64,000 bases of DNA from Escherichia coli (GCF_017348835.2 NZ_CP071375.1), one strand, 5' to 3'; shown: positions 26,015 through 58,499, counted from the first letter of the stretch. Translations and numbers: made by a program. Notes: generated from the letters alone by a model not told the origin.

Positions 26015-26028
26015 CGACACGGGTGTCG
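26015..26028. promoter_or_regulatory. Inverted repeat CGACAC-GG-GTGTCG, candidate upstream activator site for the hyf sigma54 promoter
   Basis: A perfect 6-2-6 palindrome is read directly about 100 bp upstream of the -24/-12 element, a position typical of sigma54 enhancer-binding-protein sites. Confidence 0.4.
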
Positions 26029-26123: not shown

Positions 26124-26139
26124 TGGCATCCTTTATGCA
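26124..26139 (+). promoter_or_regulatory. Sigma54 (-24/-12) promoter of the hyf operon
   Basis: TGGCATCCTTTATGCA fits TGGCAC-N5-TTGCA with correct GG/GC spacing, about 43 nt upstream of the hyfA ATG. The hyf operon is known to be sigma54-dependent. Confidence 0.7.
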
Positions 26140-26180: not shown

Positions 26181-26798
26181 ATGAACCGCTTTGTGGTGGC
26201 CGAACCAATGTGGTGTACAGGATGTAATACCTGTCTCGCTGCCTGTTCGGACGTGCATAAAACGCAAGGTTTACAGCAACACCCGCGCCTGGCCCTGGCG
26301 AAGACGTCAACACTCACTGCCCCTGTCGTGTGTCATCACTGTGAGGAAGCCCCTTGCCTGCAGGTCTGCCCGGTCAATGCCATCTCCCAGAGGGATGATG
26401 CGATCCAACTCAACGAAAGCCTCTGTATTGGCTGCAAGCTTTGCGCCGTGGTCTGCCCATTTGGCGCAATCAGCGCTTCAGGAAGCCGTCCGGTGAATGC
26501 CCCTGCGCAATATGTTTTTCAGGCTGAAGGCTCACTCAAAGACGGCGAAGAAAACGCGCCAACACAACATGCTTTGCTGCGCTGGGAACCGGGTGTCCAG
26601 ACCGTCGCGGTGAAATGCGACCTGTGTGATTTCTTGCCAGAAGGTCCGGCCTGCGTTCGCGCTTGCCCGAATCAGGCGTTACGGCTGATCACCGACGATA
26701 GCCTGCAACGTCAGATGAAAGAAAAACAGCGCCTTGCCGCAAGCTGGTTTGCCAATGGCGGGGAGGATCCCCTTTCCCTCACTCAGGAGCAACGCTAA
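26181..26798 (+). CDS. hyfA: Hydrogenase-4 component A (4Fe-4S ferredoxin-type)
   Basis: The track ORF is trimmed to MNRFVVAEPMWCTGCNTCLAACS... (205 aa), with AAGGAG 7 nt upstream. Confidence 0.94.
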   Translation: MNRFVVAEPMWCTGCNTCLAACSDVHKTQGLQQHPRLALAKTSTLTAPVVCHHCEEAPCLQVCPVNAISQRDDAIQLNESLCIGCKLCAVVCPFGAISASGSRPVNAPAQYVFQAEGSLKDGEENAPTQHALLRWEPGVQTVAVKCDLCDFLPEGPACVRACPNQALRLITDDSLQRQMKEKQRLAASWFANGGEDPLSLTQEQR

Positions 26799-28816
26799 TG
26801 GATGCCCTGCAATTATTAACCTGGTCGCTGATCCTCTATCTGTTTGCCAGTCTGGCTTCGCTGTTTTTACTCGGTCTGGACAGACTGGCTATTAAGCTTT
26901 CCGGCATCACATCGCTGGTGGGCGGCGTGATTGGCATTATCAGCGGAATTACGCAATTACATGCAGGCGTAACTTTAGTCGCCCGTTTTGCCACCCCTTT
27001 TGACTTTGCCGATTTAACCCTGCGAATGGATAGCCTCTCGGCATTTATGGTGCTGGTTATCTCCTTGCTGGTGGTGGTTTGTTCGCTCTATTCATTGACT
27101 TACATGCGCGAATACGAGGGCAAAGGCGCGGCGGCGATGGGCTTCTTTATGAATATTTTCATCGCATCGATGGTTGCCCTGCTGGTGATGGACAACGCTT
27201 TTTGGTTCATCGTGCTGTTTGAAATGATGTCACTGTCTTCCTGGTTTCTGGTCATTGCCAGGCAGGATAAAACGTCGATCAACGCTGGCATGCTCTACTT
27301 TTTTATCGCCCACGCCGGATCGGTGCTGATTATGATCGCCTTCTTGCTGATGGGACGCGAAAGCGGCAGCCTCGATTTTGCCAGTTTCCGCACGCTTTCA
27401 CTTTCTCCGGGGCTGGCGTCGGCGGTGTTCCTGCTGGCCTTTTTCGGTTTTGGCGCGAAAGCCGGAATGATGCCGTTGCACAGCTGGTTGCCGCGCGCTC
27501 ACCCTGCCGCACCATCGCACGCTTCGGCGTTGATGTCTGGCGTAATGGTCAAAATCGGTATTTTCGGCATCCTGAAAGTAGCGATGGATCTGCTGGCGCA
27601 AACGGGTTTGCCGCTGTGGTGGGGCATTCTGGTGATGGCGATCGGCGCAATCTCCGCGCTCCTGGGCGTGCTATATGCGCTGGCGGAACAGGATATCAAA
27701 CGGCTGCTGGCCTGGAGTACCGTCGAAAACGTCGGCATTATTTTGCTGGCAGTCGGTGTGGCGATGGTCGGTCTGTCACTGCACGACCCGCTGCTCACCG
27801 TGGTTGGACTGCTCGGCGCACTGTTTCATCTGCTCAACCATGCGCTGTTCAAAGGGCTGCTATTTCTCGGCGCGGGTGCGATTATTTCGCGTTTGCATAC
27901 CCACGACATGGAAAAAATGGGGGCACTGGCAAAACGGATGCCGTGGACAGCCGCAGCATGCCTGATTGGTTGCCTCGCGATATCAGCCCTTCCTCCGCTG
28001 AATGGTTTTATCAGCGAATGGTACACCTGGCAGTCGCTGTTCTCACTAAGTCGTGTGGAAGCCGTAGCGCTACAACTTGCGGGTCCTATTGCTATGGTAA
28101 TGCTGGCAGTCACTGGTGGGCTGGCAGTAATGTGCTTCGTAAAAATGTACGGTATTACTTTCTGTGGTGCGCCGCGCAGTACACACGCTGAAGAGGCACA
28201 GGAAGTGCCAAATACGATGATCGTCGCCATGCTACTGCTCGCGGCACTCTGCGTATTAATTGCGCTTAGTGCCAGTTGGCTGGCACCGAAGATAATGCAT
28301 ATTGCCCATGCGTTTACCAATACCCCTCCCGTCACTGTCGCCAGCGGAATAGCACTTGTACCCGGCACGTTTCATACACAGGTCACCCCCTCATTACTGT
28401 TGCTGTTACTACTGGCGATGCCTTTGCTGCCTGGCCTTTACTGGCTGTGGTGTCGTTCGCGCCGCGCAGCGTTTCGTCGCACAGGAGATGCCTGGGCATG
28501 CGGCTACAGCTGGGAAAACGCGATGGCTCCGTCAGGCAATGGCGTGATGCAGCCGCTGCGTGTGGTCTTCTCTGCGTTATTTCGTCTACGACAACAGCTC
28601 GACCCTACGCTGAGGCTAAATAAAGGTCTTGCGCACGTCACCGCCAGGGCTCAGAGCACAGAACCCTTCTGGGATGAGCGGGTGATCCGCCCCATCGTGA
28701 GCGCCACCCAACGGCTGGCCAAAGAAATACAGCATCTGCAAAGCGGCGACTTTCGTCTCTATTGCCTGTATGTGGTCGCCGCACTGGTTGTGCTGCTAAT
28801 CGCTATTGCCGTCTAA
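26798..28816 (+). CDS. hyfB: Hydrogenase-4 component B (NuoL/MrpA-like antiporter subunit)
   Basis: 672-aa polytopic membrane ORF. Its start overlaps the hyfA stop (TAATG). Confidence 0.94.
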   Translation: MDALQLLTWSLILYLFASLASLFLLGLDRLAIKLSGITSLVGGVIGIISGITQLHAGVTLVARFATPFDFADLTLRMDSLSAFMVLVISLLVVVCSLYSLTYMREYEGKGAAAMGFFMNIFIASMVALLVMDNAFWFIVLFEMMSLSSWFLVIARQDKTSINAGMLYFFIAHAGSVLIMIAFLLMGRESGSLDFASFRTLSLSPGLASAVFLLAFFGFGAKAGMMPLHSWLPRAHPAAPSHASALMSGVMVKIGIFGILKVAMDLLAQTGLPLWWGILVMAIGAISALLGVLYALAEQDIKRLLAWSTVENVGIILLAVGVAMVGLSLHDPLLTVVGLLGALFHLLNHALFKGLLFLGAGAIISRLHTHDMEKMGALAKRMPWTAAACLIGCLAISALPPLNGFISEWYTWQSLFSLSRVEAVALQLAGPIAMVMLAVTGGLAVMCFVKMYGITFCGAPRSTHAEEAQEVPNTMIVAMLLLAALCVLIALSASWLAPKIMHIAHAFTNTPPVTVASGIALVPGTFHTQVTPSLLLLLLLAMPLLPGLYWLWCRSRRAAFRRTGDAWACGYSWENAMAPSGNGVMQPLRVVFSALFRLRQQLDPTLRLNKGLAHVTARAQSTEPFWDERVIRPIVSATQRLAKEIQHLQSGDFRLYCLYVVAALVVLLIAIAV

Positions 28817-28826
28817 GGAAATCACC

Positions 28827-29774
28827 ATGAGACAAACTCTTTGCGACGGATATCTGGTCATTTTTGCGTTAGCACAGGCCGTGATTCTGCTGATGCTAAC
28901 CCCACTTTTTACGGGTATTTCCCGGCAGATACGCGCGCGTATGCACTCCCGCCGCGGGCCTGGGATCTGGCAGGATTATCGCGATATCCACAAACTGTTT
29001 AAACGCCAGGAAGTTGCGCCGACATCTTCAGGTCTGATGTTCCGCCTGATGCCGTGGGTATTAATCAGCAGCATGCTGGTGCTGGCGATGGCCCTACCAC
29101 TATTTATTACCGTTTCCCCTTTTGCGGGCGGCGGCGATCTGATCACCCTTATCTATCTTCTTGCCCTGTTTCGTTTTTTCTTTGCTCTTTCAGGGCTGGA
29201 TACCGGAAGCCCGTTTGCGGGAGTCGGTGCCAGTCGCGAGTTGACGCTCGGCATTCTGGTCGAACCCATGCTCATTCTCTCACTGCTGGTATTGGCGCTG
29301 ATAGCGGATTCCACGCATATCGAGATGATCAGCAATACGCTGGCGATGGGCTGGAACTCGCCGCTAACCACCGTACTGGCGTTACTGGCCTGTGGTTTTG
29401 CCTGCTTCATTGAGATGGGAAAAATTCCCTTTGATGTTGCTGAAGCAGAACAGGAATTACAGGAAGGCCCGCTGACCGAATATTCCGGTGCCGGGCTGGC
29501 GCTGGCGAAATGGGGGCTGGGGCTGAAACAGGTCGTGATGGCAGCACTGTTTGTGGCCCTGTTTCTGCCCTTTGGGCGCGCGCAAGAACTTTCTCTCGCC
29601 TGCCTGCTGACTTCACTTGTCGTTACGCTGCTCAAGGTTTTGCTGATTTTTGTACTGGCCTCAATCGCAGAAAACACGCTGGCACGCGGGCGTTTTTTAC
29701 TCATTCACCATGTGACCTGGCTTGGCTTCAGCCTTGCTGCGCTTGCATGGGTCTTCTGGTTAACCGGTCTGTAA
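28827..29774 (+). CDS. hyfC: Hydrogenase-4 component C (NuoH-like membrane subunit)
   Basis: The track ORF is trimmed to MRQTLCDGYLVIFALAQAV... (315 aa). Confidence 0.93.
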   Translation: MRQTLCDGYLVIFALAQAVILLMLTPLFTGISRQIRARMHSRRGPGIWQDYRDIHKLFKRQEVAPTSSGLMFRLMPWVLISSMLVLAMALPLFITVSPFAGGGDLITLIYLLALFRFFFALSGLDTGSPFAGVGASRELTLGILVEPMLILSLLVLALIADSTHIEMISNTLAMGWNSPLTTVLALLACGFACFIEMGKIPFDVAEAEQELQEGPLTEYSGAGLALAKWGLGLKQVVMAALFVALFLPFGRAQELSLACLLTSLVVTLLKVLLIFVLASIAENTLARGRFLLIHHVTWLGFSLAALAWVFWLTGL

Positions 29775-29790
29775 GGAGCACTGACGGAAT

Positions 29791-31230
29791 ATGGAAAATC
29801 TTGCTCTGACGACGTTAATGCTGCCTTTTATCGGCGCACTGGTCGTTTCGTTTTCGCCACAACGTCGGGCCGCCGAATGGGGGGTTTTGTTCGCCGCGCT
29901 GACCACGCTGTGCATGTTGTCGCTGATCTCCGCGTTTTATCAGGCCGATAAAGTTGCCGTCACGTTGACGTTGGTCAACGTGGGGGATGTGGCATTGTTT
30001 GGCCTGCTCATTGATCGCGTGAGTACGCTGATTCTGTTTGTGGTGGTGTTTCTCGGTTTGCTGGTCACGATCTACTCCACGGGTTATCTGACGGATAAAA
30101 ATCGCGAACACCCGCATAACGGCACGAATCGTTATTACGCATTTTTGCTGGTGTTTATCGGCGCGATGGCGGGACTGGTACTCTCCTCGACGCTGCTCGG
30201 TCAGTTGTTGTTTTTTGAAATTACGGGCGGCTGCTCCTGGGCGTTGATCAGTTATTATCAGAGCGATAAAGCGCAGCGTTCAGCACTAAAAGCGTTGCTT
30301 ATCACCCATATCGGTTCGTTGGGGTTGTATCTTGCCGCCGCCACGCTGTTTTTGCAGACCGGAACGTTTGCGCTTAGCGCGATGAGCGAGTTACACGGCG
30401 ACGCACGTTATCTGGTTTATGGCGGCATCCTGTTTGCCGCGTGGGGGAAATCGGCCCAGCTACCGATGCAAGCGTGGCTACCGGACGCAATGGAAGCGCC
30501 AACACCGATCAGCGCCTATCTCCACGCCGCATCGATGGTGAAAGTGGGCGTTTACATTTTTGCCCGCGCCATTATCGACGGCGGCAATATCCCGCATGTG
30601 ATTGGCGGTGTTGGCATGGTCATGGCCCTGGTCACCATTCTTTATGGCTTCCTGATGTATTTGCCACAGCAGGATATGAAGCGGTTGCTGGCCTGGTCGA
30701 CCATCACTCAACTTGGCTGGATGTTCTTCGGCTTGTCGCTCTCCATCTTCGGCTCGCGGCTGGCGCTGGAGGGTAGCATCGCCTACATCGTCAACCACGC
30801 GTTCGCTAAAAGCCTGTTTTTCCTTGTAGCAGGTGCGCTGAGTTACAGCTGCGGCACGCGCTTGTTGCCGCGTCTGCGTGGCGTATTGCACACCCTGCCG
30901 TTGCCAGGCGTGGGTTTCTGCGTAGCAGCGCTGGCGATTACCGGTGTGCCGCCGTTCAACGGCTTCTTCAGTAAATTCCCGCTGTTTGCCGCCGGTTTTG
31001 CGTTGTCAGTGGAGTACTGGATCCTGCTGCCCGCCATGATTCTGCTGATGATTGAATCGGTCGCCAGTTTCGCCTGGTTTATTCGCTGGTTTGGTCGCGT
31101 CGTGCCGGGCAAACCGAGCGAGGCCGTCGCCGATGCCGCACCGCTGCCAGGGTCAATGCGCCTGGTGTTGATTGTACTGATTGTGATGTCGCTGATTTCC
31201 AGCGTAATCGCCGCGACCTGGTTGCAGTAA
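29791..31230 (+). CDS. hyfD: Hydrogenase-4 component D (NuoM/N-like antiporter subunit)
   Basis: 479-aa membrane ORF in hyf operon order. Confidence 0.93.
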   Translation: MENLALTTLMLPFIGALVVSFSPQRRAAEWGVLFAALTTLCMLSLISAFYQADKVAVTLTLVNVGDVALFGLLIDRVSTLILFVVVFLGLLVTIYSTGYLTDKNREHPHNGTNRYYAFLLVFIGAMAGLVLSSTLLGQLLFFEITGGCSWALISYYQSDKAQRSALKALLITHIGSLGLYLAAATLFLQTGTFALSAMSELHGDARYLVYGGILFAAWGKSAQLPMQAWLPDAMEAPTPISAYLHAASMVKVGVYIFARAIIDGGNIPHVIGGVGMVMALVTILYGFLMYLPQQDMKRLLAWSTITQLGWMFFGLSLSIFGSRLALEGSIAYIVNHAFAKSLFFLVAGALSYSCGTRLLPRLRGVLHTLPLPGVGFCVAALAITGVPPFNGFFSKFPLFAAGFALSVEYWILLPAMILLMIESVASFAWFIRWFGRVVPGKPSEAVADAAPLPGSMRLVLIVLIVMSLISSVIAATWLQ

Positions 31231-31241
31231 GGAGATGATGA

Positions 31242-31892
31242 ATGACCGGTTCTATGATCGTAAATAATCTGGCGGGACTGATGATGCTGACATCGCTGTT
31301 TGTGATTAGCGTCAAAAGCTATCGCCTGTCATGCGGATTTTACGCCTGCCAGTCGCTGGTGCTGGTGTCTATTTTCGCCACTCTCTCGTGCCTGTTCGCC
31401 GCAGAGCAACTGCTGATCTGGTCTGCCAGCGCCTTTATCACCAAAGTGCTGCTGGTACCGTTAATCATGACTTACGCTGCACGAAATATTCCCCAGAACA
31501 TCCCGGAAAAAGCGTTATTCGGTCCGGCAATGATGGCACTGCTCGCGGCGTTAATTGTCCTGCTTTGCGCATTTGTCGTTCAGCCCGTGAAGCTACCGAT
31601 GGCTACCGGGCTGAAACCGGCGCTGGCGGTAGCGTTAGGTCATTTTCTGCTTGGCCTGCTGTGCATTGTCAGCCAGCGCAATATCCTGCGGCAAATTTTT
31701 GGTTACTGCCTGATGGAAAACGGCTCCCATCTGGTGCTGGCGCTTCTTGCCTGGCGAGCACCGGAACTGGTGGAAATAGGTATCGCTACCGACGCCATCT
31801 TCGCCGTCATTGTGATGGTGTTACTGGCAAGAAAAACATGGCGTACCCACGGCACGCTGGACGTGAACAACTTGACCGCGCTGAAGGGATAA
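31242..31892 (+). CDS. hyfE: Hydrogenase-4 component E (membrane subunit)
   Basis: 216-aa membrane ORF in hyf operon order. Confidence 0.92.
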
Positions 31893-31896
31893 TGAG

Positions 31897-33477
31897 ATGA
31901 GTTATTCTGTGATGTTCGCTTTACTCCTGCTCACGCCGCTGCTTTTTTCGCTGCTCTGTTTTGCCTGCCGGAAACGGGGGCACTCTGCGACTCGCGCGGT
32001 GACAGTATTACATAGCTTAGGGATCACACTACTGCTGATTCTGGCACTCTGGGTGGTCCAAACCGCCGCTGATGCGGGAGAAATATTCGCTGCGGGACTG
32101 TGGCTTCATATTGATGGTCTGGGCGGTTTGTTCCTCGCCATTCTTGGTGTGATTGGCTTTCTTACCGGTGTTTACTCGATTGGCTACATGCGTCATGAAG
32201 TGGAGCACGGCGAGCTTTCACCCGTTACGCTGTGCGATTACTACGGTTTCTTCCATCTGTTTTTGTTCACCATGCTGCTGGTTGTTACCAGCAATAACCT
32301 GATTGTGATGTGGGCGGCGATCGAAGCCACCACCTTAAGCTCGGCGTTTCTGGTAGGCATTTACGGTCAGCGTTCATCGCTGGAAGCTGCATGGAAGTAC
32401 ATCATTATTTGTACTGTTGGTGTCGCTTTTGGTCTGTTCGGTACCGTGCTGGTATACGCCAACGCCGCCAGCGTTATGCCGCAGGCAGAAATGGCGATAT
32501 TCTGGAGCGAGGTTCTTAAGCAATCGTCCTTGCTTGATCCAACATTAATGCTGTTGGCCTTTGTGTTTGTGCTAATTGGCTTTGGTACCAAAACCGGGCT
32601 ATTTCCCATGCACGCCTGGCTGCCGGATGCTCACAGTGAAGCGCCGAGTCCGGTCAGCGCCCTACTCTCCGCCGTATTGCTGAACTGCGCGCTGTTGGTG
32701 CTGATTCGCTATTACATCATTATTTGCCAGGCCATCGGCAGCGATTTCCCCAACCGGTTGTTGCTCATCTTCGGCATGTTGTCGATTGCCGTGGCGGCAT
32801 TTTTCATTCTGGTACAGCGGGACATTAAGCGTCTGCTGGCGTACTCCAGCGTGGAGAACATGGGACTGGTCGCGGTGGCGCTAGGCATTGGCGGGCCGCT
32901 GGGAATTTTTGCCGCGCTGCTGCACACCTTAAACCACAGTCTAGCAAAAACGCTGCTGTTCTGCGGTTCCGGCAATGTACTGCTCAAGTACGGCACGCGC
33001 GATCTCAACGTCGTCTGTGGGATGCTCAAAATCATGCCATTTACCGCCGTGCTGTTTGGCGGCGGTGCGCTGGCGCTGGCAGGGATGCCGCCCTTCAACA
33101 TTTTTCTTAGCGAATTTATGACCGTTACCGCCGGACTGGCACGTAATCACCTGCTGATTATCGTCCTGCTGTTATTGCTGTTAACGCTGGTGCTGGCGGG
33201 CCTGGTACGGATGGCTGCGCGGGTGTTAATGGCGAAACCGCCGCAGGCCGTTAACCGGGGTGATCTCGGCTGGTTGACCACCTCGCCAATGGTGATTCTG
33301 CTGGTCATGATGCTGGCGATGGGAACGCATATTCCACAACCTGTCATCAGGATCCTGGCGGGCGCTTCCACTATAGTCCTCTCAGGGACGCACGACCTGC
33401 CTGCACAACGTAGTACCTGGCATGATTTTTTGCCTTCAGGCACCGCATCTGTTTCGGAGAAACACAGTGAACGTTAA
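31897..33477 (+). CDS. hyfF: Hydrogenase-4 component F (NuoN/M-like antiporter subunit)
   Basis: 526-aa membrane ORF in hyf operon order. Confidence 0.93.
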
Positions 33478-35182
33478 TTCATCGTCAAATCGTGGCGAAG
33501 CGATTCTCGCCGCCCTGAAAACGCAGTTCCCCGGCGCGGTGCTGGATGAAGAGCGACAAACGCCTGAACAGGTCACCATTACGGTGAAAATCAATCTGCT
33601 GCCTGACGTTGTGCATTATCTTTATTATCAACATGATGGCTGGCTTCCGGTCCTGTTTGGCAACGACGAGCGGACACTTAACGGTCATTACGCGGTTTAT
33701 TATGCCCTTTCTATGGAAGGGGCCGAAAAATGCTGGATCGTGGTGAAGGCACTGGTCGATGCCGACAGTCGGGAGTTTCCGTCAGTCACACCGCGCGTCC
33801 CTGCCGCGGTCTGGGGCGAGCGAGAAATTCGCGATATGTACGGGCTGATTCCGGTTGGCCTGCCGGATCAGCGTCGCCTGGTGTTGCCCGATGACTGGCC
33901 GGAAGATATGCATCCGCTACGCAAAGATGCGATGGATTATCGACTGCGCCCTGAACCGACGACTGATTCCGAAACGTATCCGTTTATCAATGAGGGCAAC
34001 AGCGATGCGCGGGTGATCCCTGTCGGCCCGCTGCATATCACCTCCGATGAACCGGGTCACTTCCGCTTGTTTGTGGATGGCGAGCAAATTGTCGATGCTG
34101 ATTACCGCCTGTTTTATGTCCATCGCGGCATGGAGAAACTGGCAGAAACGCGGATGGGCTACAACGAAGTGACTTTCTTATCGGACCGCGTGTGTGGGAT
34201 TTGCGGTTTTGCCCACAGTGTGGCCTATACCAACTCGGTTGAAAATGCACTGGGGATTGAGGTGCCGCAACGAGCGCATACCATTCGCTCGATTCTGCTG
34301 GAAGTCGAACGGCTACACAGTCATTTGCTCAACCTTGGCCTCTCCTGCCATTTTGTTGGATTTGATACCGGCTTTATGCAATTTTTCCGCGTGCGGGAAA
34401 AGTCAATGACAATGGCGGAATTGCTGACCGGGTCGCGTAAAACCTACGGTCTGAATCTGATTGGTGGTGTTCGCCGCGATATTCTCAAAGAGCAACGTCT
34501 GCAAACGCTGAAACTGGTGCGCGAGATGCGCGCCGACGTGTCGGAGCTGGTAGAAATGCTGCTTGCCACGCCGAATATGGAACAACGCACTCAGGGCATT
34601 GGCATTCTCGACCGACAAATCGCCCGTGATTATAGCCCTGTAGGGCCGCTGATCCGCGGCAGTGGTTTTGCCCGTGATTTGCGCTTTGATCACCCCTACG
34701 CCGACTACGGCAATATTCCAAAAACACTGTTTACCTTTACTGGCGGCGATGTCTTCTCCCGCGTGATGGTCCGTGTCAAAGAGACGTTTGATTCGCTGGC
34801 AATGCTGGAATTTGCCCTCGACAACATGCCGGATACCCCACTGCTGACCGAAGGCTTTAGCTATAAACCTCACGCATTCGCGCTGGGCTTTGTTGAAGCG
34901 CCACGCGGTGAAGACGTGCACTGGAGCATGCTCGGTGATAACCAAAAATTGTTCCGCTGGCGCTGTCGTGCCGCCACCTACGCCAACTGGCCGGTGCTGC
35001 GTTACATGCTACGCGGCAATACCGTTTCTGACGCACCGCTGATTATCGGTAGCCTTGATCCCTGCTACTCCTGTACCGACCGTGTGACGCTGGTAGATGT
35101 GCGCAAGCGCCAGTCAAAAACCGTGCCGTATAAAGAGATCGAACGCTACGGCATTGATCGTAACCGTTCGCCGCTGAAGTAA
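33467..35182 (+). CDS. hyfG: Hydrogenase-4 large subunit (NiFe; NuoC-NuoD-like fusion), GTG start
   Basis: The track ORF 33422..35182 is placed at a GTG at 33467 preceded by GGAGAA, giving (M)[16 protein letters not shown]... (571 aa). It has N-terminal RVCGICG and C-terminal DPCYSCTDR Ni-binding motifs. The exact start is uncertain. Confidence 0.9.
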
Positions 35183-35191
35183 GGACAGAAG

Positions 35192-35737
35192 ATGCTGAAG
35201 TTACTGAAAACTATTATGCGCGCCGGAACCGCGACGGTGAAATATCCCTTCGCGCCACTGGAGGTCAGCCCAGGCTTTCGCGGGAAACCGGACCTGATGC
35301 CCAGCCAATGTATTGCCTGCGGTGCCTGCGCCTGTGCTTGTCCGGCAAATGCGCTGACTATCCAGACCGACGACCAGCAAAATTCGCGCACCTGGCAGCT
35401 CTATCTGGGGCGTTGTATTTACTGCGGACGTTGTGAAGAAGTGTGCCCGACCAGAGCCATTCAGCTTACCGATAACTTTGAACTGACCGTCACCAATAAA
35501 GCCGATCTCTATACCCGCGCGACGTTCCATCTACAACGTTGCAACCGTTGCGAACGCCCGTTTGCCCCGCAAAAAACCGTCGCACTGGCTGCTGAATTGT
35601 TGGCACAGCAACAAAATGCGCCACAAAACCGCGAAATGTTGCGGGCGCAAGCGAGCGTCTGCCCGGAGTGCAAACAACGCGCGACGCTGATCAACGACGA
35701 TACAGATGTACCGCTGGTGGCTAAGGAGCAGCTATGA
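35192..35737 (+). CDS. hyfH: Hydrogenase-4 component H (2x4Fe-4S ferredoxin, NuoI-like)
   Basis: 181-aa ORF with [12 protein letters not shown] and [12 protein letters not shown] motifs. Confidence 0.94.
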
Positions 35738-36492
35738 GTCCAGTGCTTACACAACATGTCAGCCAGCCCATCACGCTGGACGAGCAAACGCAAAAGATGA
35801 AGCGGCATTTGCTACAGGATATCCGTCGCTCGGCTTACGTTTATCGCGTCGATTGCGGCGGCTGCAACGCCTGTGAAATCGAAATTTTTGCCGCCATCAC
35901 ACCCTTATTCGACGCAGAACGTTTTGGCATTAAGGTTGTTTCATCACCGCGTCACGCCGATATTTTGTTATTTACTGGCGCAGTCACCCGGGCGATGCGT
36001 ATGCCTGCACTTCGGGCGTATGAGTCTGCCCCCGATCATAAAATCTGTGTTTCCTACGGCGCGTGCGGTGTCGGCGGCGGTATTTTCCACGATCTCTACA
36101 GCGTCTGGGGCGGCAGCGACACCATTGTCCCCATTGATGTTTGGATCCCCGGCTGCCCGCCAACACCGGCCGCCACCATTCACGGTTTCGCCGTGGCGCT
36201 CGGTTTGCTGCAACAGAAGATTCACGCGGTGGATTATCGCGATCCCACCGGGGTGACTATGCAACCGTTGTGGCCGCAGATCCCGCCATCACAGCGTATC
36301 GCCATTGAGCGAGAAGCGCGGCGGCTGGCGGGCTATCGTCAGGGGCGAGAAATTTGCGATCGGCTCCTGCGCCATTTAAGCGACGATCCTACAGGAAATC
36401 GGGTTAACACCTGGTTGCGCGATGCCGACGATCCACGTCTCAATAGTATCGTTCAGCAACTCTTTCGCGTACTCCGGGGGTTACATGACTGA
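35734..36492 (+). CDS. hyfI: Hydrogenase-4 small subunit (NuoB-like)
   Basis: 252-aa ORF with CGGCNACE and GCPP motifs. It overlaps the hyfH stop. Confidence 0.94.
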
Positions 36493-36898
36493 AGAGTGCG
36501 GGGAAATTGTTTTCTGGACGCTGCGAAAAAAGTTTGTCGCCAGTAGCGACGAGATGCCGGAACACAGCTCTCAGGTAATGTATTACTCGCTAGCTATCGG
36601 CCATCACGTTGGCGTGATTGATTGTCTGAATGTCGCCTTCCGCTGCCCACTGACGGAATACGAAGATTGGCTTGCACTGGTCGAAGAGGAGCAAGCCCGA
36701 CGTAAGATGCTGGGGGTGATGACTTTTGGTGAGATTGTTATTGACACCAGCCACACCGCCCTGTTGACCCGGGCATTCGCGCCACTGGCGGATGACGCGA
36801 CGTCTGTGTGGCAGGCGCGTAGCATTCAATTCATTCATCTGTTGGATGAAATTGTGCAGGAACCGGCCATCTATCTGATGGCCAGAAAAATTGCGTGA
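36485..36898 (+). CDS. hyfJ: Hydrogenase-4 component J (HycH-like maturation/processing factor)
   Basis: The track ORF is trimmed to [27 protein letters not shown]... (137 aa). Confidence 0.9.
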
Positions 36899-36927
36899 GA
36901 AGGATTTCTCATTAATAAGGACTGTTG

Positions 36928-38939
36928 ATGGCTATGTCAGACGAGGCGATGTTTGCCCCGCCGCAAGGAATAACAATTGAAGCGGTAAACGGAATGCTCG
37001 CGGAGCGGTTAGCACAGAAACACAGCAAGGCGTCTTTATTACGCGCCTTCATCCCGCTGCCGCCGCCGTTCAGCCCGGTACAACTTATTGAGCTGCATGT
37101 TCTCAAAAGCAACTTCTATTACCGCTACCATGATGATGGCAGCGATGTGACGGCAACAACAGAGTATCAGGGCGAGATGGTCGATGATTCGCGCCACGCC
37201 GTCCTTCTCGGCAGTAGTGGAATGGCGGAGCTACGCTTTATTCGTACCCACGGCAGCCGTTTTACTCCCCAGGATTGCACACTGTTTAACTGGCTGGCGC
37301 GGATAATCACCCCGGTTCTGCAATCATGGCTCAATGATGAAGAACAGCAGGTGGCGCTGCGTTTGCTGGAGAAAGATCGCGATCATCATCGGGTACTGGT
37401 TGATATTACTAATGCAGTGCTGTCACATCTTGATCTCGACGATCTGATCGCTGACGTCGCCCGTGAGATCCATCATTTTTTCGGTCTGGCTTCAGTCAGT
37501 ATGGTACTGGGAGATCATCGAAAGAACGATAAGTTCAGCCTGTGGTGCAGCGATCTTTCTGCCTCACATTGTGCGTGTCTGCCACGCAATATGCCTGGCG
37601 ACAGTGTATTGCTGACACAAACGCTACAAACCCGACAACCGACCTTGACGCACCGTGCAGACGATCTGTTTCTCTGGCAACGCGACCCGTTATTACACTT
37701 ACTTGCATCTAACGGCTGCGAATCTGCGCTCCTGATACCGCTTACCTTTGGCAACCATACACCGGGTGCATTGTTGCTGGCGCATACCTCTTCCACTCTC
37801 TTTAGTGAGGAAAACTGCCAGCTACTACAACACATAGCCGATCGCATCGCTATTGCCGTTGGCAATGCCGATGCCTGGCGTAGCATGACCGATTTGCAGG
37901 AAAGTTTGCAGCAAGAAAACCACCAGCTTAGCGAGCAGCTCCTTTCGAATCTGGGCGTCGGTGACATTATCTATCAAAGCCAGGCAATGGAAGACCTGCT
38001 CCAGCAGGTAGATATTGTGGCGAAGAGCGACAGTACGGTGTTGATTTGTGGTGAAACCGGAACCGGCAAAGAGGTGATCGCCAGAGCGATCCATCAACTT
38101 AGCCCGCGACGCGACAAGCCGCTGGTCAAAATCAACTGCGCTGCCATCCCCGCCAGTCTTCTGGAAAGTGAGTTATTCGGTCATGACAAAGGGGCGTTTA
38201 CTGGTGCGATTAATACCCATCGTGGTCGTTTTGAAATTGCCGATGGCGGCACGTTGTTTCTCGATGAAATTGGCGATCTGCCGTTAGAACTTCAGCCTAA
38301 ATTGCTGCGCGTATTGCAGGAGCGGGAAATTGAGCGTCTCGGCGGGAGTAGAACGATCCCGGTGAATGTCAGAGTCATTGCCGCCACCAACCGTGATTTG
38401 TGGCAAATGGTTGAAGATCGCCAGTTTCGCAGCGATCTCTTTTATCGCCTGAATGTCTTCCCACTGGAATTGCCGCCGCTACGCGACCGTCCGGAAGATA
38501 TCCCTCTTTTAGCAAAACATTTCACGCAAAAAATGGCGCGCCATATGAATCGCGCAATTGACGCCATCCCGACCGAGGCACTACGCCAGTTGATGTCGTG
38601 GGATTGGCCGGGCAACGTGCGCGAGCTGGAAAACGTGATTGAGCGGGCGGTACTGTTGACTCGTGGTAACAGTCTGAATTTACATCTAAATGTCCGACAA
38701 AGCCGTTTACTGCCGACGCTAAATGAAGATTCAGCGCTTCGCAGTTCAATGGCGCAGTTGCTGCACCCGACGACGCCAGAGAATGACGAAGAAGAACGTC
38801 AGCGCATTGTTCAGGTATTGCGAGAAACCAATGGCATTGTTGCGGGCCCCGTGGCGCGGCGACACGATTAGGGATGAAGCGCACCACGCTGCTGTCACGA
38901 ATGCAGCGTCTGGGGATCTCGGTTCGCGAGGTGTTGTAA
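36928..38939 (+). pseudogene. hyfR: hyfR, sigma54-dependent activator (GAF + AAA+), frameshifted before the C-terminal HTH
   Basis: The main frame (MAMSDEAMFAPPQG... with GETGTGKE Walker A and GAFTGA motifs) ends ...NGIVAGPVARRHD* at 38871. The -1 frame reads GPRGAATRLGMKRTTLLSRMQRLGISVREVL* ending at 38939. The frames join at the C-run 38847-38850. Confidence 0.85.
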
Positions 38940-38960
38940 TCTGTTTTTGCAGGAGTATGC

Positions 38961-39809
38961 ATGAGAAATAAACTCTCTTTCGACTTGCAGTTGAGCGCCA
39001 GAAAAGCGGCAATCGCTGAACGGATTGCCGCCCATAAAATTGCCCGCAGTAAAGTGTCGGTCTTTTTAATGGCGATGTCCGCTGGCGTGTTTATGGCGAT
39101 CGGATTTACTTTTTACCTTTCCGTTATCGCCGATGCCCCGTCTTCACAGGCATTAACCCATCTGGTGGGCGGCCTTTGCTTTACACTCGGCTTTATTTTG
39201 CTGGCGGTTTGCGGCACCAGCCTGTTCACCTCGTCGGTAATGACGGTGATGGCAAAAAGTCGGGGCGTTATTAGTTGGCGAACTTGGCTGATTAACGCAC
39301 TTCTGGTGGCCTGCGGTAATCTGGCAGGTATTGCCTGTTTCAGTTTGTTAATCTGGTTTTCCGGGCTGGTAATGAGTGAAAACGCGATGTGGGGAGTCGC
39401 GGTTTTACACTGCGCCGAGGGCAAAATGCATCATACATTTACTGAATCTGTCAGCCTCGGCATTATGTGCAATCTGATGGTTTGCCTGGCGCTGTGGATG
39501 AGTTATTGCGGGCGTTCATTATGCGACAAAATCGTCGCCATGATTTTGCCCATCACCCTGTTTGTCGCCAGTGGCTTTGAGCACTGTATCGCCAATTTGT
39601 TTGTGATTCCGTTCGCCATTGCCATTCGCCATTTCGCCCCTACCTCCTTCTGGCAACTGGCGCACTGTAGCGCAGACAATTTTCCTGCACTGACGGTAAG
39701 CCATTTTATTACCGCCAATCTGCTCCCGGTGATGCTGGGTAATATTATCGGCGGTGCAGTGCTGGTGAGTATGTGTTATCGGGCTATTTATTTACGTCAG
39801 GAATCCTGA
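38961..39809 (+). CDS. focB: Formate/nitrite transporter-family channel FocB
   Basis: 282-aa FNT-family membrane ORF at the end of the hyf locus. Confidence 0.93.
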   Translation: MRNKLSFDLQLSARKAAIAERIAAHKIARSKVSVFLMAMSAGVFMAIGFTFYLSVIADAPSSQALTHLVGGLCFTLGFILLAVCGTSLFTSSVMTVMAKSRGVISWRTWLINALLVACGNLAGIACFSLLIWFSGLVMSENAMWGVAVLHCAEGKMHHTFTESVSLGIMCNLMVCLALWMSYCGRSLCDKIVAMILPITLFVASGFEHCIANLFVIPFAIAIRHFAPTSFWQLAHCSADNFPALTVSHFITANLLPVMLGNIIGGAVLVSMCYRAIYLRQES

Positions 39810-51721: not shown

Positions 51722-53965
51722 TCAGGCACTTTCGCGAATGGGTTCGATTTCATTCAGCGTATCAATTAACGGTTGCGGCTTACCAATAAGATAACCCTGC
51801 ATATAATCGATCCCCAAAGAGAGCACTGCCTCGCGGATCTCTTCGTTTTCAACGTACTCTGCCACTACCAGCATTTTCTTCATTCGCGCCAGGTGGCAAA
51901 TCGATGCCACTATCTGATAATCCAGACTATTTGACACAATATTGCGGATAAAACTGCCGTCAATTTTAAGCAGATCGGCATTCACATTTTTAAGCCGCGC
52001 ATAGCTGGCGTAGCCGGTGCCGAAATCATCAATCGCAATCTGGCAGCCTAATTCCTGAAGATGCTGCAAGGTGATTTGCGCCTGCTTAACATTGGTCAGA
52101 GCATTACTTTCGGTGACTTCAAAAATAAGTTGCCACGCTTCAATCTGATATTTAGCCAGCAACTGACTGACTTCAACAGGAAAACGAGCCTGACATACCG
52201 AGGTTGGAGACAGATTAATAGCAAAACGGTGAGCGGGCATCTTCGCTCTGTTTTCAGCCATAAATTGCAGCGTATGCTCAATGACCCACATGTCGATACT
52301 CGACGATAAACCAAATTCGTGCGCGACCGGCAAGAAGCTATCGGGGCTGATCAGTTCATCATTCTCACCTTTCATGCGCAGAAGAATTTCATGGTAAACA
52401 TCACCACGCATACCGGTAATTGGCTGGGCCATCAGGAAAAAATGGTTGTGTTCCAGCGCCTGCTGTAGTCGATTCATCATCGCGACTTTATCTTTCAATT
52501 CGCGTTGCAAATACATTGCCCCGCGACGCTGCATATTTTCCGGGGCGTTGGTCACGATGGAAAGTTCGGCGACCGTATTTAGCTCTCCCAGCAGCAGGTA
52601 GATATAATTCACTGGCGAGCGCACATAGCAGTAACTGACGCCAATCTGCGGTTGCATCGGCATGCCATCCCAAAAGAAACGAAATTGCTTGAGATGGCTA
52701 TCCAGTGCGGTAATGCGCTCCTGGTGCGATTCTGTATTCAGTCGCAGCGCGAGATCGTTACCCGAAAGCTGATAAACATCTTCACCCGGTTCCAGCAATG
52801 GTGACAGCCAGTGAGAAAGTTTTTGCTTGTATTGAATCCGCAGCATGATGCCATAGTTTTTAACCAGCATTTCCATGCCAGGGATGCGTAAATAACAAAG
52901 CGCAGACCAGGGGGCATCACGCAACGCGCGATTCAGGGCGCGAACATTTGGCAGATGAACCACCGGGTCCACATACGCAAGCCGCTGAATGCGTCTGACT
53001 ACCGTTCTCTGACGGGTTGCCAGTACAGCCATATAATTGACAATAAAAGAGAATACCAGATAACTGGAGGAGGTTATGGTCAGCTGCGTGGTATAGCCGG
53101 GATAAATGGGAATGTAATTTTGATAGCTGTGGATGCTGATCATCAACACGACCGCCCAGAGCAGTGAAATCAGCTTATAACCATAGCGCATCGCTCCCCA
53201 CATCATCAGGGGCAGCAATAATGACAAGGTATAATTGGTGCTAAAAATTGTGCTTTTTTCATTTAACGGCATGCATAACAGCAACAGTAAAGCACCTAAT
53301 GCCAGTAGCCAGAGTGCGAACTCTTTTTTGGTGACTTTGACATCAACCTGCTGTTTTAATTGCGAATAATAACTACGTAAATAAAACGGATTTCGAACTA
53401 CCCGAATGATGAAGTAGCACAGCGGGACACCAATCAGATTGCCCACCAGTAAGGCCTGATAATTGATTAAAGTCCCGAGGTTAAAAGGCATGACACCGAC
53501 CAGATTTTCTCTGCTCGCCAGTAATCCTACAAATGCAGCAAACTGGAAAAGTATCAGAAACAGCGTTGCAGGAAACACAATCTGCCAGAATATACGCTGG
53601 GAAATTAAACGGGTATCACCATGTGAAACGTTGTTACGCCGGGGAGTAAAGACCCTGTAACCGCCCCAACAGAGAATGATAATGATGATAAAATTAGCCG
53701 TTAATGAGAGCGTTTCGTAAAAACCCAGCTCTGCATATTTGCGGACAAAAATCCCTAAGGCGATCCCTGGCAATGCCGCCCAGCTGAAAAACATCATCAT
53801 GCTGATCATCAGTGCCAAAGGCAGATAAAAGAGAAAAACCTCACCGGAAGAAATATGCGCGAAAGTATTAATGTGGGCGAAAATAGGCAAGATTAAAGAA
53901 GGCAGGAACAGCGGAAGCCCCCACCATTTATCACGTATTTTTATATAAGTTGCATTCAGTTTCAT
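51722..53965 (-). CDS. pdeF: c-di-GMP phosphodiesterase PdeF/YfgF (MASE1 membrane domain, degenerate GGDEF, EAL)
   Basis: 747-aa ORF with an N-terminal polytopic region and a C-terminal EAL domain (EVTES...DDFGTGYAS), at the K-12 position. Confidence 0.93.
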   Translation of the reverse strand: MKLNATYIKIRDKWWGLPLFLPSLILPIFAHINTFAHISSGEVFLFYLPLALMISMMMFFSWAALPGIALGIFVRKYAELGFYETLSLTANFIIIIILCWGGYRVFTPRRNNVSHGDTRLISQRIFWQIVFPATLFLILFQFAAFVGLLASRENLVGVMPFNLGTLINYQALLVGNLIGVPLCYFIIRVVRNPFYLRSYYSQLKQQVDVKVTKKEFALWLLALGALLLLLCMPLNEKSTIFSTNYTLSLLLPLMMWGAMRYGYKLISLLWAVVLMISIHSYQNYIPIYPGYTTQLTITSSSYLVFSFIVNYMAVLATRQRTVVRRIQRLAYVDPVVHLPNVRALNRALRDAPWSALCYLRIPGMEMLVKNYGIMLRIQYKQKLSHWLSPLLEPGEDVYQLSGNDLALRLNTESHQERITALDSHLKQFRFFWDGMPMQPQIGVSYCYVRSPVNYIYLLLGELNTVAELSIVTNAPENMQRRGAMYLQRELKDKVAMMNRLQQALEHNHFFLMAQPITGMRGDVYHEILLRMKGENDELISPDSFLPVAHEFGLSSSIDMWVIEHTLQFMAENRAKMPAHRFAINLSPTSVCQARFPVEVSQLLAKYQIEAWQLIFEVTESNALTNVKQAQITLQHLQELGCQIAIDDFGTGYASYARLKNVNADLLKIDGSFIRNIVSNSLDYQIVASICHLARMKKMLVVAEYVENEEIREAVLSLGIDYMQGYLIGKPQPLIDTLNEIEPIRESA

Positions 53966-54508: not shown

Positions 54509-54601
54509 CGGTTACCTTCTCCACTTTCACAGAACATAACGGCACTTTGAACCGCCCCGGAAATCCTGGAGACTAAACTCCCTGAGAAAGAGGTAAACAG
54601 G

Positions 54602-54928
54602 ATGACTAAAAATACTCGTTTTTCCCCCGAAGTCCGTCAGCGGGCGATTCGTATGGTTCTGGAAAGTCAGGATGAATATGACTCACAGTGGGCGGCAATT
54701 TGTTCCATTGCCCCAAAGATTGGCTGTACGCCGGAGACTCTGCGTGTCTGGGTTCGCCAGCATGAGCGGGATACCGGGAGTGGTGATGGTGGACTCACCA
54801 CCGCTGAACGTCAGCGTCTGAAAGAGCTGGAACGTGAAAATCGTGAACTGCGCCGCAGTAACGATATCCTTCGCCAGGCTTCCGCTTATTTTGCGAAGGC
54901 GGAGTTCGACCGCCTCTGGAAAAAATAA
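54602..54928 (+). CDS. IS3-family transposase OrfA (HTH/leucine-zipper)
   Basis: 108-aa [26 protein letters not shown]... ending at an A6 run followed by TAA. Confidence 0.95.
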
Positions 54929-55815
54929 TGCCACTGCTGGATAAGCTGCGTGAGCAGTACGGGGTCGGACCGGTATGCAGCGAACTGCATATTGCCCCGT
55001 CAACGTATTACCATTGTCAGCAACAGCGACATCATCCGGATAAACGCAGTGCCCGTGCGCAGCACGATGACTGGCTGAAGAAAGAGATACAGCGCGTATA
55101 CGATGAAAATCACCAGGTATACGGTGTGCGTAAAGTCTGGCGTCAGTTGTTACGGGAAGGTATCAGAGTGGCCAGATGCACTGTGGCACGTCTCATGGCA
55201 GTTATGGGACTTGCCGGTGTTCTCCGGGGTAAAAAGGTCCGCACTACCGTCAGCCGGAAAGCCGTTGCCGCATGCGACCGCGTAAACCGTCAGTTCGTGG
55301 CAGAACGTCCAGACCAGTTGTGGGTGGCTGATTTTACCTGGGTAAGCACATGGCAGGGCTTCGTTTATGTGGCGTTCATCATTGATGTGTTCGCCGGATA
55401 CATCGTGGGATGGCAGGTCTCATCATCCATGGAAACAACATTCGTGCTGGATGCACTGGAGCAGGCGTTGTGGGCCCGTCGGCCGTCCGGCACAATCCAT
55501 CACAGTGATAAAGGTTCTCAGTATGTATCGCTGGCCTACACGCAGCGGCTTAAGGAAGCCGGATTACTGGCATCAACAGGGAGTACTGGCGACTCGTATG
55601 ACAACGCGATGGCTGAGAGCATCAATGGTCTTTACAAAGCGGAGGTAATACACCGTAAGAGCTGGAAAAACCGGACAGAAGTGGAACTGGCCACACTAAC
55701 GTGGGTGGACTGGTATAACAATCGACGATTGCTGGAAAGGCTGGGCCATATTCCTCCGGCAGAAGCAGAAAAAGCTTATTATGCTTCCATCGGAAATAAT
55801 GATCTGGCAGCCTGA
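54928..55815 (+). CDS. IS3-family transposase OrfB (DDE catalytic domain), in the -1 frame relative to OrfA
   Basis: 295-aa ORF with DDE residues in WVADFT, HHSDKGSQY and NAMAESIN. The -1 frame is open from 54862, so an OrfAB fusion by programmed frameshifting at the A6 run is possible. Confidence 0.95.
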   Translation: MPLLDKLREQYGVGPVCSELHIAPSTYYHCQQQRHHPDKRSARAQHDDWLKKEIQRVYDENHQVYGVRKVWRQLLREGIRVARCTVARLMAVMGLAGVLRGKKVRTTVSRKAVAACDRVNRQFVAERPDQLWVADFTWVSTWQGFVYVAFIIDVFAGYIVGWQVSSSMETTFVLDALEQALWARRPSGTIHHSDKGSQYVSLAYTQRLKEAGLLASTGSTGDSYDNAMAESINGLYKAEVIHRKSWKNRTEVELATLTWVDWYNNRRLLERLGHIPPAEAEKAYYASIGNNDLAA

Positions 55816-55857
55816 GTTCACAGATAAAACACTCTCCAGGAAACCCGGGGCGGTTCA

Positions 55858-55964
55858 AACTCGTACAGTGGCGTACCACTGGGGTCCATTCCTTCAAGTC
55901 TCAGGGAAGCCTCTGCTTTGCGGAAGCCCTCAATGCGTAACCGTGTATAGGGAGTCCTAGACAT
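55858..55964 (-). pseudogene. 5' fragment (35 codons) of a VbhA-like (Fic-associated) antitoxin gene, cut by the IS
   Basis: The reverse strand reads AAGGAAAAAC ATG TCT AGG ... = MSRTPYTRLRIEGFRKAEASLRLEGMDPSGTPLYE, running straight into the IS right end. The A.ASLRLEG..PS motif is typical of VbhA-family antitoxins. Confidence 0.55.
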
Positions 55965-56045
55965 GTTTTTCCTTTGAGTTGCAGGAGTGAGGTTCGCTCA
56001 GTGAAAGCGTCAGCTCACGCAACCTCGTTAACTGACGCGCGTGAT

Positions 56046-57446
56046 TCAAGATTTATTATTACCCGATAAGCTATCACCGGCAAAATCATCATGTTCGCGG
56101 TTATCCCGACGAGTAGCTGTTTGTTTACTTATCTGAGTCGCCAACTCCTCTCCAATAGTTTGTTGGGCACGAGAAGAACTGCTACTTCGCTTCATTCTCT
56201 GGTACTCAGCAGCTCCGTTAGCCATGCTGCTTCCCATATGGCTTGCCATGCGGCCAGCACGCGAGAATGAAGCAAACCCCTGACTTCCTCCACTGGCGCT
56301 ACCTGAACTGCTCCCTGCAGACGAACCACTGTAACCGCCTGAGGTTTGGCCTCCAGAAGTATCTACAGAACCGGTATCTTCCCCGCCGCCAAATCCTCCA
56401 CCGGAACCGCCTCCGCTGCCTGAACCAGATTCTTCGTCCATGGCAGCTTGCGCAGACTCGAATGCTGCCTTTAATGCTGAAGCTCCGCCGCTGACTTGAG
56501 CTGATGCCCCCATTGCCATTGCTCCAGCACCGCTGATGGCAGTAGCGGCTGCGCCGGTAATCATACCCGCCCCAAATCCACCAATCCCTTGTAAAGAAGC
56601 CCCTCCTACAACACCTGATAACAACAGTGGTAGCTTATTAGTTAATACTAACAGGATAATTGACGCCAGAAGCAAAACTATAAGACTATTAAGATCAGGA
56701 ACATCATCTTTAATAAGAGAAAAATATTGATCTATAAATGATTGTCCAATCCCAATAATTAATGTCATCGTGAATAATTGAATGCCAATCGATAAAACAG
56801 TTCGTAAGTAATTAATTGCTATATCAGAGGTCCATTTCGAACCACCAAACCCAAGCAATATAACTCCTGCATAACATAACACCCATGCAGAAACCAACAT
56901 GATTAGCATATTTATCGCTATAAGGGACATCACTACCAAAACGATTATCGCGACTGTTATCATAATGGTGGATATCATTGGCGACCAAATTGATGCGGCT
57001 GAACTGATCTTGGTTAATATCGCAAACGCCATATCAACTATGCTTGAGGGAGAAATACCAATACTTATTTCTAAAGCGTTTGCTGCAAGTTGTCTCATTG
57101 AATTAATTATGGATTGCGATATGGATGGACCGTTGATTAAAAGATAATAAAAAAAACCAATGACGGCAAAAAAGCGAACTATTTCAGCAAGTACCCCTGT
57201 CAACCCTTCCCCTTGCATCGCCATCATACCAAATGTCCAAACCATACTTATTAATACCAGCCCCCAGAAGAGCCAATTTGCATAGTCAGCAATTACTGCT
57301 GTCCATGTACTGGCTACTTGTTGAAACTTATCTAATAAAGTATCAAGTAGCCCGCTACTATCTAATTGACCAGCATAGGCATTAATAGAAAAGAAAAGTA
57401 TGATACCTAAAAAGGTGAGCTTACTTACTATTTTCATGATTACCAT
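56046..57446 (-). CDS. trbL: TrbL/VirB6-family type IV secretion membrane protein with a Gly/Ser-rich C-terminal tail
   Basis: 466-aa ORF with a signal peptide, multiple TM segments and trbJ-trbK-trbL synteny. The low-complexity tail reads GSGSGGGSGGGFGGGEDTGS.... Confidence 0.8.
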   Translation of the reverse strand: MVIMKIVSKLTFLGIILFFSINAYAGQLDSSGLLDTLLDKFQQVASTWTAVIADYANWLFWGLVLISMVWTFGMMAMQGEGLTGVLAEIVRFFAVIGFFYYLLINGPSISQSIINSMRQLAANALEISIGISPSSIVDMAFAILTKISSAASIWSPMISTIMITVAIIVLVVMSLIAINMLIMLVSAWVLCYAGVILLGFGGSKWTSDIAINYLRTVLSIGIQLFTMTLIIGIGQSFIDQYFSLIKDDVPDLNSLIVLLLASIILLVLTNKLPLLLSGVVGGASLQGIGGFGAGMITGAAATAISGAGAMAMGASAQVSGGASALKAAFESAQAAMDEESGSGSGGGSGGGFGGGEDTGSVDTSGGQTSGGYSGSSAGSSSGSASGGSQGFASFSRAGRMASHMGSSMANGAAEYQRMKRSSSSSRAQQTIGEELATQISKQTATRRDNREHDDFAGDSLSGNNKS

Positions 57447-57613: not shown

Positions 57614-57624
57614 TCTGCGTTTCC

Positions 57625-58419: not shown

Positions 58420-58462
58420 TTGCTCACCTCTTTTTCAACAGATTAGTAATATTTAACACTCT

Positions 58463-58476: not shown

Positions 58477-58499
58477 GCAGGTATATAGGAAACCACACA

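Follow-up and report, generated by a model that had tools for sequence, protein, structure and literature searches.

The hyfR gene in the window, by which we mean the whole stretch of 64,000 nucleotides of Escherichia coli DNA that was analysed (GCF_017348835.2, NZ_CP071375.1), is divided between two overlapping reading frames, and the question is what this division represents. The initial annotation left three options open: a recent inactivation of the activator of hydrogenase-4, a sequencing error, or a slippage-prone switch. Here, we ask which base is missing, whether the allele is real, how old it is, and what the remaining protein could still do.

The truncated hyfR frame is found on the plus strand at 36928..38871. 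It starts with the ATG at 36928, consists of 647 codons and terminates in ETNGIVAGPVARRHD followed by a TAG, as seen both in the ORF listing and when the sequence is read from 38700 to 39000. This TAG (38869..38871, plus strand) is a premature stop in the shifted frame; residues 1-641 of the product are wild type and are followed by six novel ones, VARRHD. A second frame is open from 38787, overlaps the first by 28 codons (38787 to 38871) and ends at 38939 with GPRGAATRLGMKRTTLLSRMQRLGISVREVL and a stop, which is the normal C-terminus of HyfR. When one base is added to the window hyfR, a 670-aa protein is obtained whose last 163 residues (508-670) are exactly those of HyfR in K-12 and ATCC 8739, and the second frame is therefore not a chance ORF. 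The orphaned 3' end in the original frame (38850..38939, plus strand) encodes RGAATRLGMKRTTLLSRMQRLGISVREVL up to the stop, i.e., helices 2 and 3 of a Fis-type HTH. It contains no additional lesion, but 90 nt are too short for this to carry much weight. The initial annotation had given the same frames with the same ends, and they were all recovered when the ORFs were reread. The ATG used here is also the start that PGAP assigns to hyfR in PE164 and F2_81, two complete genomes discussed below. A TTG is present three bases 5' of this ATG and lengthens the mechanical ORF by one codon.

In K-12, hyfR (b2491) encodes a paralogue of FhlA, the sigma54-dependent activator of hyf (hydrogenase-4/FHL-2), and the gene order hyfABCDEFGHIJ-hyfR-focB is the same as in the window. 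The repaired window protein is identical to K-12 HyfR at 662 of 670 residues, with none of the eight substitutions past residue 344, and both have the same architecture of GAF, AAA+ and Fis-type HTH. Compared with K-12 HyfR, the window protein as it stands loses the last 29 residues, by a 1-nt deletion in codon 639, and gains VARRHD. The loss of one nucleotide relative to intact hyfR, proposed in the initial annotation, is thus directly visible in the alignments to K-12 and ATCC 8739.

The ten genes hyfABCDEFGHIJ (26181..36898, plus strand) are open, with 0 internal stops and 97-99.6% amino acid identity to K-12. The downstream gene focB (38961..39809, plus strand) is intact, encodes 282 aa and has its own AGGAG ribosome-binding site. 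Upstream of hyfA, both the sigma54-type -24/-12 element TGGCATCCTTTATGCA (26124..26139, plus strand, TGGCAT-N5-ATGCA) and the palindrome CGACACGGGTGTCG (26015..26028, plus strand) are identical to K-12. The palindrome is the presumed activator-binding site, and we infer that CGACACGGGTGTCG acts as the upstream activating sequence. The initial annotation had described the ten structural genes, focB, the promoter and the palindrome as intact, and the comparison with K-12 agrees in each case.

The position of the missing base is masked at the protein level. The intact alleles read GTT GCC GGG CCC CGT GGC (V A G P R G), while the window reads GTT GCG GGC CCC GTG GCG (V A G P V A). Val-Ala-Gly-Pro is identical in either register, so the proteins part only after Pro641, just past a run of four C, and the true site is hidden. 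At the nucleotide level, Ala codon 639 has lost one of its two C (GCC to GC; CC doublet at window position 38843/38844), 3-4 nt upstream of the four-C run. The lesion itself occupies 38842..38844 on the plus strand, with GCG in the window where intact alleles have GCC and then G. In the alignments to ATCC 8739 and K-12, the intact TTGCCGGGCCCCG is opposed to TTGC-GGGCCCCG in the window, and all seven intact close relatives that were compared (L012-L018) read GGCATTGTTGCCGGGCCCCGTGGCG at this site.

The initial annotation had instead placed the switch point in the four-C run and seen there a loss from five C to four. The run is indeed present, at 38847..38850 on the plus strand. However, it is unchanged from the wild type, as K-12, ATCC 8739 and the seven close relatives all have the same CCCC, and the C5-to-C4 homopolymer loss is therefore ruled out. 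A survey of the length of this run in strains of the lineage had been proposed; it revealed no length variation, with CCCC in all seven intact relatives. The annotation had also given K-12 HyfR as a protein of 670 aa ending in this peptide, and had named as grounds for giving up its reading that K-12 might have the same four C together with a different C-terminus. The first is the case, while the second is not, since the K-12 comparison gives both the length and the end peptide as stated there. The locus is a cautionary case: where residues are alike in both frames around an indel, the apparent switch point can be several bases away from the true mutation, and a neighbouring homopolymer is easily blamed for it.

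Long-read assemblies are known to suffer from single-base indels in GC-rich runs. It could therefore be argued that the missing C is a sequencing or assembly error, and that the genome truly contains CC and an intact hyfR. An artefact of this kind may even be present in the hyfH gene of PE164, where a change from AAAAACC to AAAAAAA is seen relative to the window. A 501-nt query around the lesion matched ~4,290 complete E. coli genomes, and the hyfR 3' region is missing from ~21% of complete E. coli genomes. Without a gap, the query matches only two complete genomes, PE164, from a pig in China, and F2_81, from a pig in Australia. Similarly, an 81-nt probe centred on the lesion is found exactly in 2 of the 4,290 genomes, and the repaired 82-mer in 2,764. 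In both carriers, PGAP already labels hyfR as 'frameshifted' (PE164: NZ_CP114128.1, LZG51_RS06205; F2_81: NZ_CP043542.1, CPH39_RS06415). Their lesion is identical to that of the window and there is no difference at hyfR.

The two genomes are not copies of each other. PE164 is colinear with the window across the 64 kb, with 6 substitutions, while F2_81 differs by 8 substitutions in the first 52 kb and has a different island farther on, as well as an IS3 copy elsewhere. As PE164 and F2_81 differ both in island content and in the position of IS3, they are distinct strains with a common lesion. A separate difference is seen in pdeF: the window has an intact copy, PE164 has one with a nonsense mutation, and in F2_81 the gene is split by IS3.

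One listing gives at least 19 contigs with the exact 647-aa product, and it was read on at least 24 contigs, assembled independently of each other, in NCBI, ENA and Logan. At the DNA level, the assemblies of the public runs ERR3970200 and SRR21743672 contain GC-GGGCCCC, i.e., the same lesion. An error would have to recur in the window, in two complete genomes that come from different laboratories and continents, and in these contigs, the Logan assemblies of public runs among them. It would also have to spare closely related drafts, in which CC is intact and no sign of a systematic artefact is seen. Further, the affected context is a doublet and not a long homopolymer, and the deletion state tracks the SNP phylogeny described below. 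With two structurally different complete genomes, at least 24 contigs and this phylogeny, the allele is real, and an artefact is very unlikely.

The intact relatives show that the deletion is recent. The repaired 670-aa HyfR exists verbatim in public data, on at least 58 listed contigs (121 index blocks). In five intact draft relatives, hyfR is the same at 2,013 of 2,013 nt except for the extra C, and 14 kb of flanks contain 3-5 real SNPs relative to the window. This is the pattern of a frameshift pseudogene, a single indel against otherwise identical intact orthologues, and it is seen for all five. The SNP comparison covers a small sample of five carriers (the window, PE164, F2_81, L010 and L011) and the seven intact relatives, one of which (L014) has a non-colinear stretch in its neighbourhood.

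The seven intact relatives share G35544, A39666 and G44279. Among the carriers, L011 retains both G35544 and A39666, and A35544 is found in F2_81. T39666 is added to A35544 in the window, PE164 and L010, and the window and PE164 also have A44279, a position at which L010 and L011 lack coverage. The carrier SNPs form a perfectly nested series, without homoplasy or reversion among the five carriers and seven intact relatives. Because the flanking SNPs nest the carriers in one clade in this manner, a single origin is supported: the deletion is a recent, single event on an existing haplotype, followed by ordinary accumulation of SNPs.

The same comparison bears on the idea of a phase-variable contingency switch, in which frequent changes in tract length would turn DNA binding by HyfR on and off. 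Both states do occur among very close relatives, and a second, independent indel is known at the same HTH-coding position in the O157:H7 strain TB21-1 (NZ_CP038292.1), where hyfR is likewise annotated as 'frameshifted'. However, TB21-1, which belongs to an unrelated lineage, has lost 14 bp between CGG microhomologies, compared with 1 nt in the window, and its lesion does not result from slippage. In the window, it is a CC doublet that has mutated, and its adjacent runs are just GGG and CCCC, both unchanged. There is only one alternative length, the carriers are monophyletic without reversion in the sample, and the allele is found in 2 of 4,290 complete genomes. The features of a contingency locus were looked for, and neither a long homopolymer or multi-copy repeat at the site nor repeated gain and loss among the five carriers and seven intact relatives was found. 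A contingency switch is hardly credible here. Of the three options raised at the outset, the nesting of the SNPs supports the recent inactivation, while the independent assemblies speak against a sequencing error, and the lack of a tract and of reversion against a slippage-prone switch.

A frameshifted gene could still give rise to a full-length protein by recoding. The deletion created a formal X_XXY_YYZ heptamer, G_GGC_CCC, in the 0 frame at 38844..38850 (plus strand), and from the sequence and the codon table a -1 slip at this heptamer would yield exactly wild-type HyfR. It can therefore be speculated that slippage here, or elsewhere in the overlap of the two frames, makes enough functional full-length HyfR. 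The C_CC.Y tetramer is described as somewhat frameshift-prone in E. coli (PMC4066793), and for two test proteins, the non-programmed suppression of 1-nt deletions amounted to as much as 1-10% in aggregate (PMC10861913). However, among the heptamers listed as exceeding 0.1% without a stimulator, G_GG.C_CC.C does not appear, and the sibling G_GG.C_CC.A stays below the threshold even with the IS3 pseudoknot (PMC4066793). According to the same work, heptamer motifs in E. coli without a stimulator give ~0.02-0.5% frameshifting (PMC4066793).

No stimulatory structure was detected in the downstream RNA at 38844-38930, where the fold has a z-score of +0.82 and is equalled or surpassed by 156 of 200 shuffles. 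Inspection of the sequence upstream of the heptamer also revealed no Shine-Dalgarno-like stimulator. The two-frame arrangement is not conserved, as it is present in 2 of 4,290 genomes. Thus, among the hallmarks of programmed -1 frameshifting, the window has the heptamer, in a formal sense only, and lacks a proven efficiency, a stimulator and conservation. Programmed frameshifting as a designed feature is rejected on the basis of the z-score, the poor class of the heptamer and the lack of conservation, and recoding at a level sufficient for function is distinctly improbable. It is possible that trace amounts of full-length HyfR arise by non-programmed slippage, but nothing suggests selection for such slippage.

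The truncated protein retains most of its recognisable domains. In both the truncated and the intact HyfR, Pfam identifies GAF at 169-311 (PF01590 and PF13185 cover 168-311), Sigma54_activat (PF00158) at 347-513 with 251 bits, and AAA_lid_14 at 519-585. The translation of the truncated protein contains the motifs GETGTGKE (Walker A) and GAFTGA. A C-terminal HTH belongs to the established architecture of sigma54 enhancer-binding proteins. In intact HyfR, HTH_8 is found at 621-661 with 21.0 bits, slightly under its gathering score of 22, while in the 647-aa product no Pfam match to HTH_8 is seen. The NCBIfam FhlA model gives the same picture, aligning to position 690 of 692 for the intact protein and 664 of 692 for the truncated one, whose score is ~50 bits lower. 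Among the NCBIfam matches listed there is no HyfR-specific model; the best is the FhlA equivalog, under its cut-off, as expected because HyfR is a paralogue of FhlA. Both sets of profiles agree with the earlier description of the 647-aa product as a protein with GAF and AAA+ but no HTH.

The HTH of intact HyfR is a putative one, assigned by family-level alignment. When the C-terminal 72 aa were searched against solved structures, a single marginal match was obtained, to the HTH of FleQ (E = 0.12), from which the helix boundaries can be placed approximately. By this alignment, the Fis-type domain at the C-terminus keeps just its first helix, EERQRIVQVLRETNG, while the 29 lost residues hold the HTH proper, GAATRLGM-KRTTLLSRMQRLG. 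Set against the sigma54 enhancer-binding proteins of the FhlA/HyfR type, the window product has the AAA+ domain, the GAF domain and orthology to K-12, but no in-frame Fis-type HTH. It is a broken member of the family and not a new architecture.

We suggest, with a probability of roughly 0.8, that the window contains a recent loss-of-function allele of hyfR, or at best a strongly weakened one, which has a single origin and is inherited vertically in a small lineage. The proposed course of events is the following. In codon 639 (Ala), a single C of the CC doublet was lost, so that the hyfR frame is left after Pro641 and six unrelated residues and a stop follow. The product retains the N-terminal region, the GAF sensor and the AAA+ domain for interaction with sigma54, including GAFTGA and the lid. 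From its domain architecture, a HyfR lacking the HTH is predicted not to be tetherable to the enhancer upstream of hyfA. Because without the HTH it would not be concentrated at the upstream site, HyfR-dependent activation of the hyf promoter would probably be lost or greatly reduced, and whatever FhlA provides would remain. The mutation is passed on vertically in a small E. coli lineage, whose sequenced complete genomes come from pigs.

The allele is probably neutral or nearly so, and neutrality is an assumption of the proposed history. It can be motivated by the contribution of hydrogenase-4 in E. coli, which is small if it can be detected at all, and by about one fifth of complete genomes being without the locus. 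Skibinski et al. 2002 reportedly found that FhlA activates hyf too, that a chromosomal hyfR knockout left hyfA-lacZ expression unchanged, and that the chromosomal expression of hyfR is weak. The evidence that FHL-2 is active in E. coli K-12 is inconsistent (PMC13645896), and when the hyf promoter was swapped there was still no Hyd-4-dependent H2 production (PMC7654741). In Pectobacterium atrosepticum, which has an active FHL-2, deletion of hyfR leaves very low activity (PMC7384014).

Some activity may remain in the truncated HyfR. Activation from solution, at lower efficiency, is still possible for enhancer-binding proteins that lack their DNA-binding domain; engineered proteins of this kind achieve it at sigma54 promoters, ~10-fold weaker than the cognate tethered activator (PMC3844500). 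As the GAF and AAA+ domains, the GAFTGA motif and the lid are all intact, and as the allele has lasted long enough for intercontinental spread and a few SNPs, the truncation might alter regulation instead of abolishing it. The protein could be an enhancer-independent, perhaps promiscuous activator, or it could be dominant-negative by mixing with FhlA or by titrating the sigma54 holoenzyme or the effector. However, activation from solution usually requires overexpression, whereas chromosomal hyfR is reportedly weakly expressed. The regulatory GAF domain remains, and the protein is consequently not constitutive in the manner of DctD250. A single indel without any compensatory change in a tiny clade is also the pattern of a neutral pseudogene, and the unrelated 14-bp deletion at the same place in the O157:H7 strain fits relaxed constraint. 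We therefore consider altered regulation by a non-null HyfR unlikely.

A further step would be that the HTH-less HyfR is kept because it is useful, either by activating without a tether or by modulating the FhlA/sigma54 formate regulon in a dominant manner, perhaps supplemented by -1 slippage at a low level at G_GGC_CCC. If true, the regulation of formate-hydrogen metabolism would be rewired in this lineage and not lost. This is improbable, and the loss or strong weakening of HyfR remains our preferred explanation.

The allele is an ordinary lineage-specific pseudogene, and its lesion is already in the RefSeq annotation of both complete carrier genomes. What is added here is the corrected site of the mutation, the evidence that the allele is real, the identification of its intact progenitor allele and the support for a single recent origin. 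For hydrogenase-4 the loss matters little, as the role of hyf in E. coli is already doubtful. The lesion in the window, the deletion in TB21-1 and the absence of hyf from about one fifth of genomes together fit relaxed selection on the regulation of hyf. The lineage and its intact sisters, among them GCA_900195445.1 and GCA_020514385.1, also form a natural near-isogenic pair, which could be used to ask whether chromosomal HyfR acts in wild E. coli.

Enhancer-binding proteins without a DNA-binding domain exist in nature, for instance FlgR of Helicobacter and CtcC of Chlamydia. The closest engineered likeness is DctD250, which, as the truncated HyfR, contains the AAA+ domain for interaction with sigma54 without a C-terminal HTH, so that contact with the holoenzyme from solution would be possible in principle; from solution, it is ~10-fold weaker than the cognate NtrC at one promoter (PMC3844500). 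However, these proteins are constructs that were overexpressed or architectures that evolved and are conserved, while the HyfR of the window lies a single mutational step from an intact gene. It is confined to a tiny clade, and the coding sequence of its orphaned HTH is still present downstream.

The loss of the HyfR helix-turn-helix (HTH) is not confined to the lineage of the window. In E. coli O157:H7 TB21-1 (NZ_CP038292.1), hyfR carries a 14-bp deletion, CGGgccccgtggcgCGG, which is flanked by CGG microhomologies and lies at 2535-2550 of the extracted locus, equivalent to 38844-38856 in the window. This deletion is independent of the single-nucleotide deletion in the window, yet it is located at exactly the same spot, and the gene is likewise annotated as 'frameshifted'. 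The HTH of HyfR has therefore been lost in a second, unrelated lineage at the same GC-rich patch.

Changes are also found in close relatives of the window in which hyfR is intact. In one of them, L014 (ENA ERZ9514769; 1-2550), the first 1.4 kb, covering hyfD-hyfF, is not colinear with the window; no gene of hyfE size is called in this stretch, and a 530-aa gene is called at the position of the 526-aa hyfF of the other loci. Both L014 and a second such relative, L015, have a C-to-T change in focB at the equivalent of window position 39798, and focB is called there as 279 aa versus 282 aa, i.e. three codons less. Thus, lesions are accumulating elsewhere in the hyf-focB cluster too, within the same clone.

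Across the species, of 5,426 complete E. coli genomes a single one matches no part of the 24-kb query. About 1,130 of the 5,426 (about 21%) have no megablast match to the 3' region of hyfR, which suggests that the hyf cluster, 26181-39809 in the window, is missing from a substantial share of E. coli.

Two further differences concern the records. The PGAP call of hyfG (33467-35182) uses a GTG start, and the protein is 571 aa in PE164 and F2_81, the two complete genomes sharing the hyfR deletion, whereas the K-12 record gives 555 aa; the discrepancy lies in the annotation of the start site and is not a sequence lesion. In hyfH, at 35577-35578, PE164 has AAAAAAA, which turns a Thr of HyfH into Lys; the sequence is AAAAACC in the window, in F2_81 and in every other relative. 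As the two adjacent changes lengthen the A-run, this is possibly an assembly error in the PE164 record.

Downstream, an IS3-family element (54546-55857), whose transposase has a programmed frameshift, adjoins yfgG in the window and PE164, while in F2_81 it is located inside pdeF. Past it, at about 55900-64000, the window and PE164 contain what is left of an integrative or conjugative element (TrbL, TrbJ, TraJ, a RepA-family helicase, a LuxR-family regulator and a tyrosine integrase). In their place, F2_81 has yfgH-yfgI followed by a defence-type island with DprA, RecQ and ABC-three-component genes.

In the window, the pdeF gene (51722-53965, minus strand), which encodes an anaerobic c-di-GMP phosphodiesterase, is a full-length ORF of 747 aa. 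Different lesions inactivate it in the two complete genomes closest to the window: PE164 carries W353* as well as Y454H, and in F2_81 the gene is split by the IS3-family insertion. Two independent knock-outs in three near-identical strains hint that pdeF is selected against, or is lost during laboratory or host adaptation.
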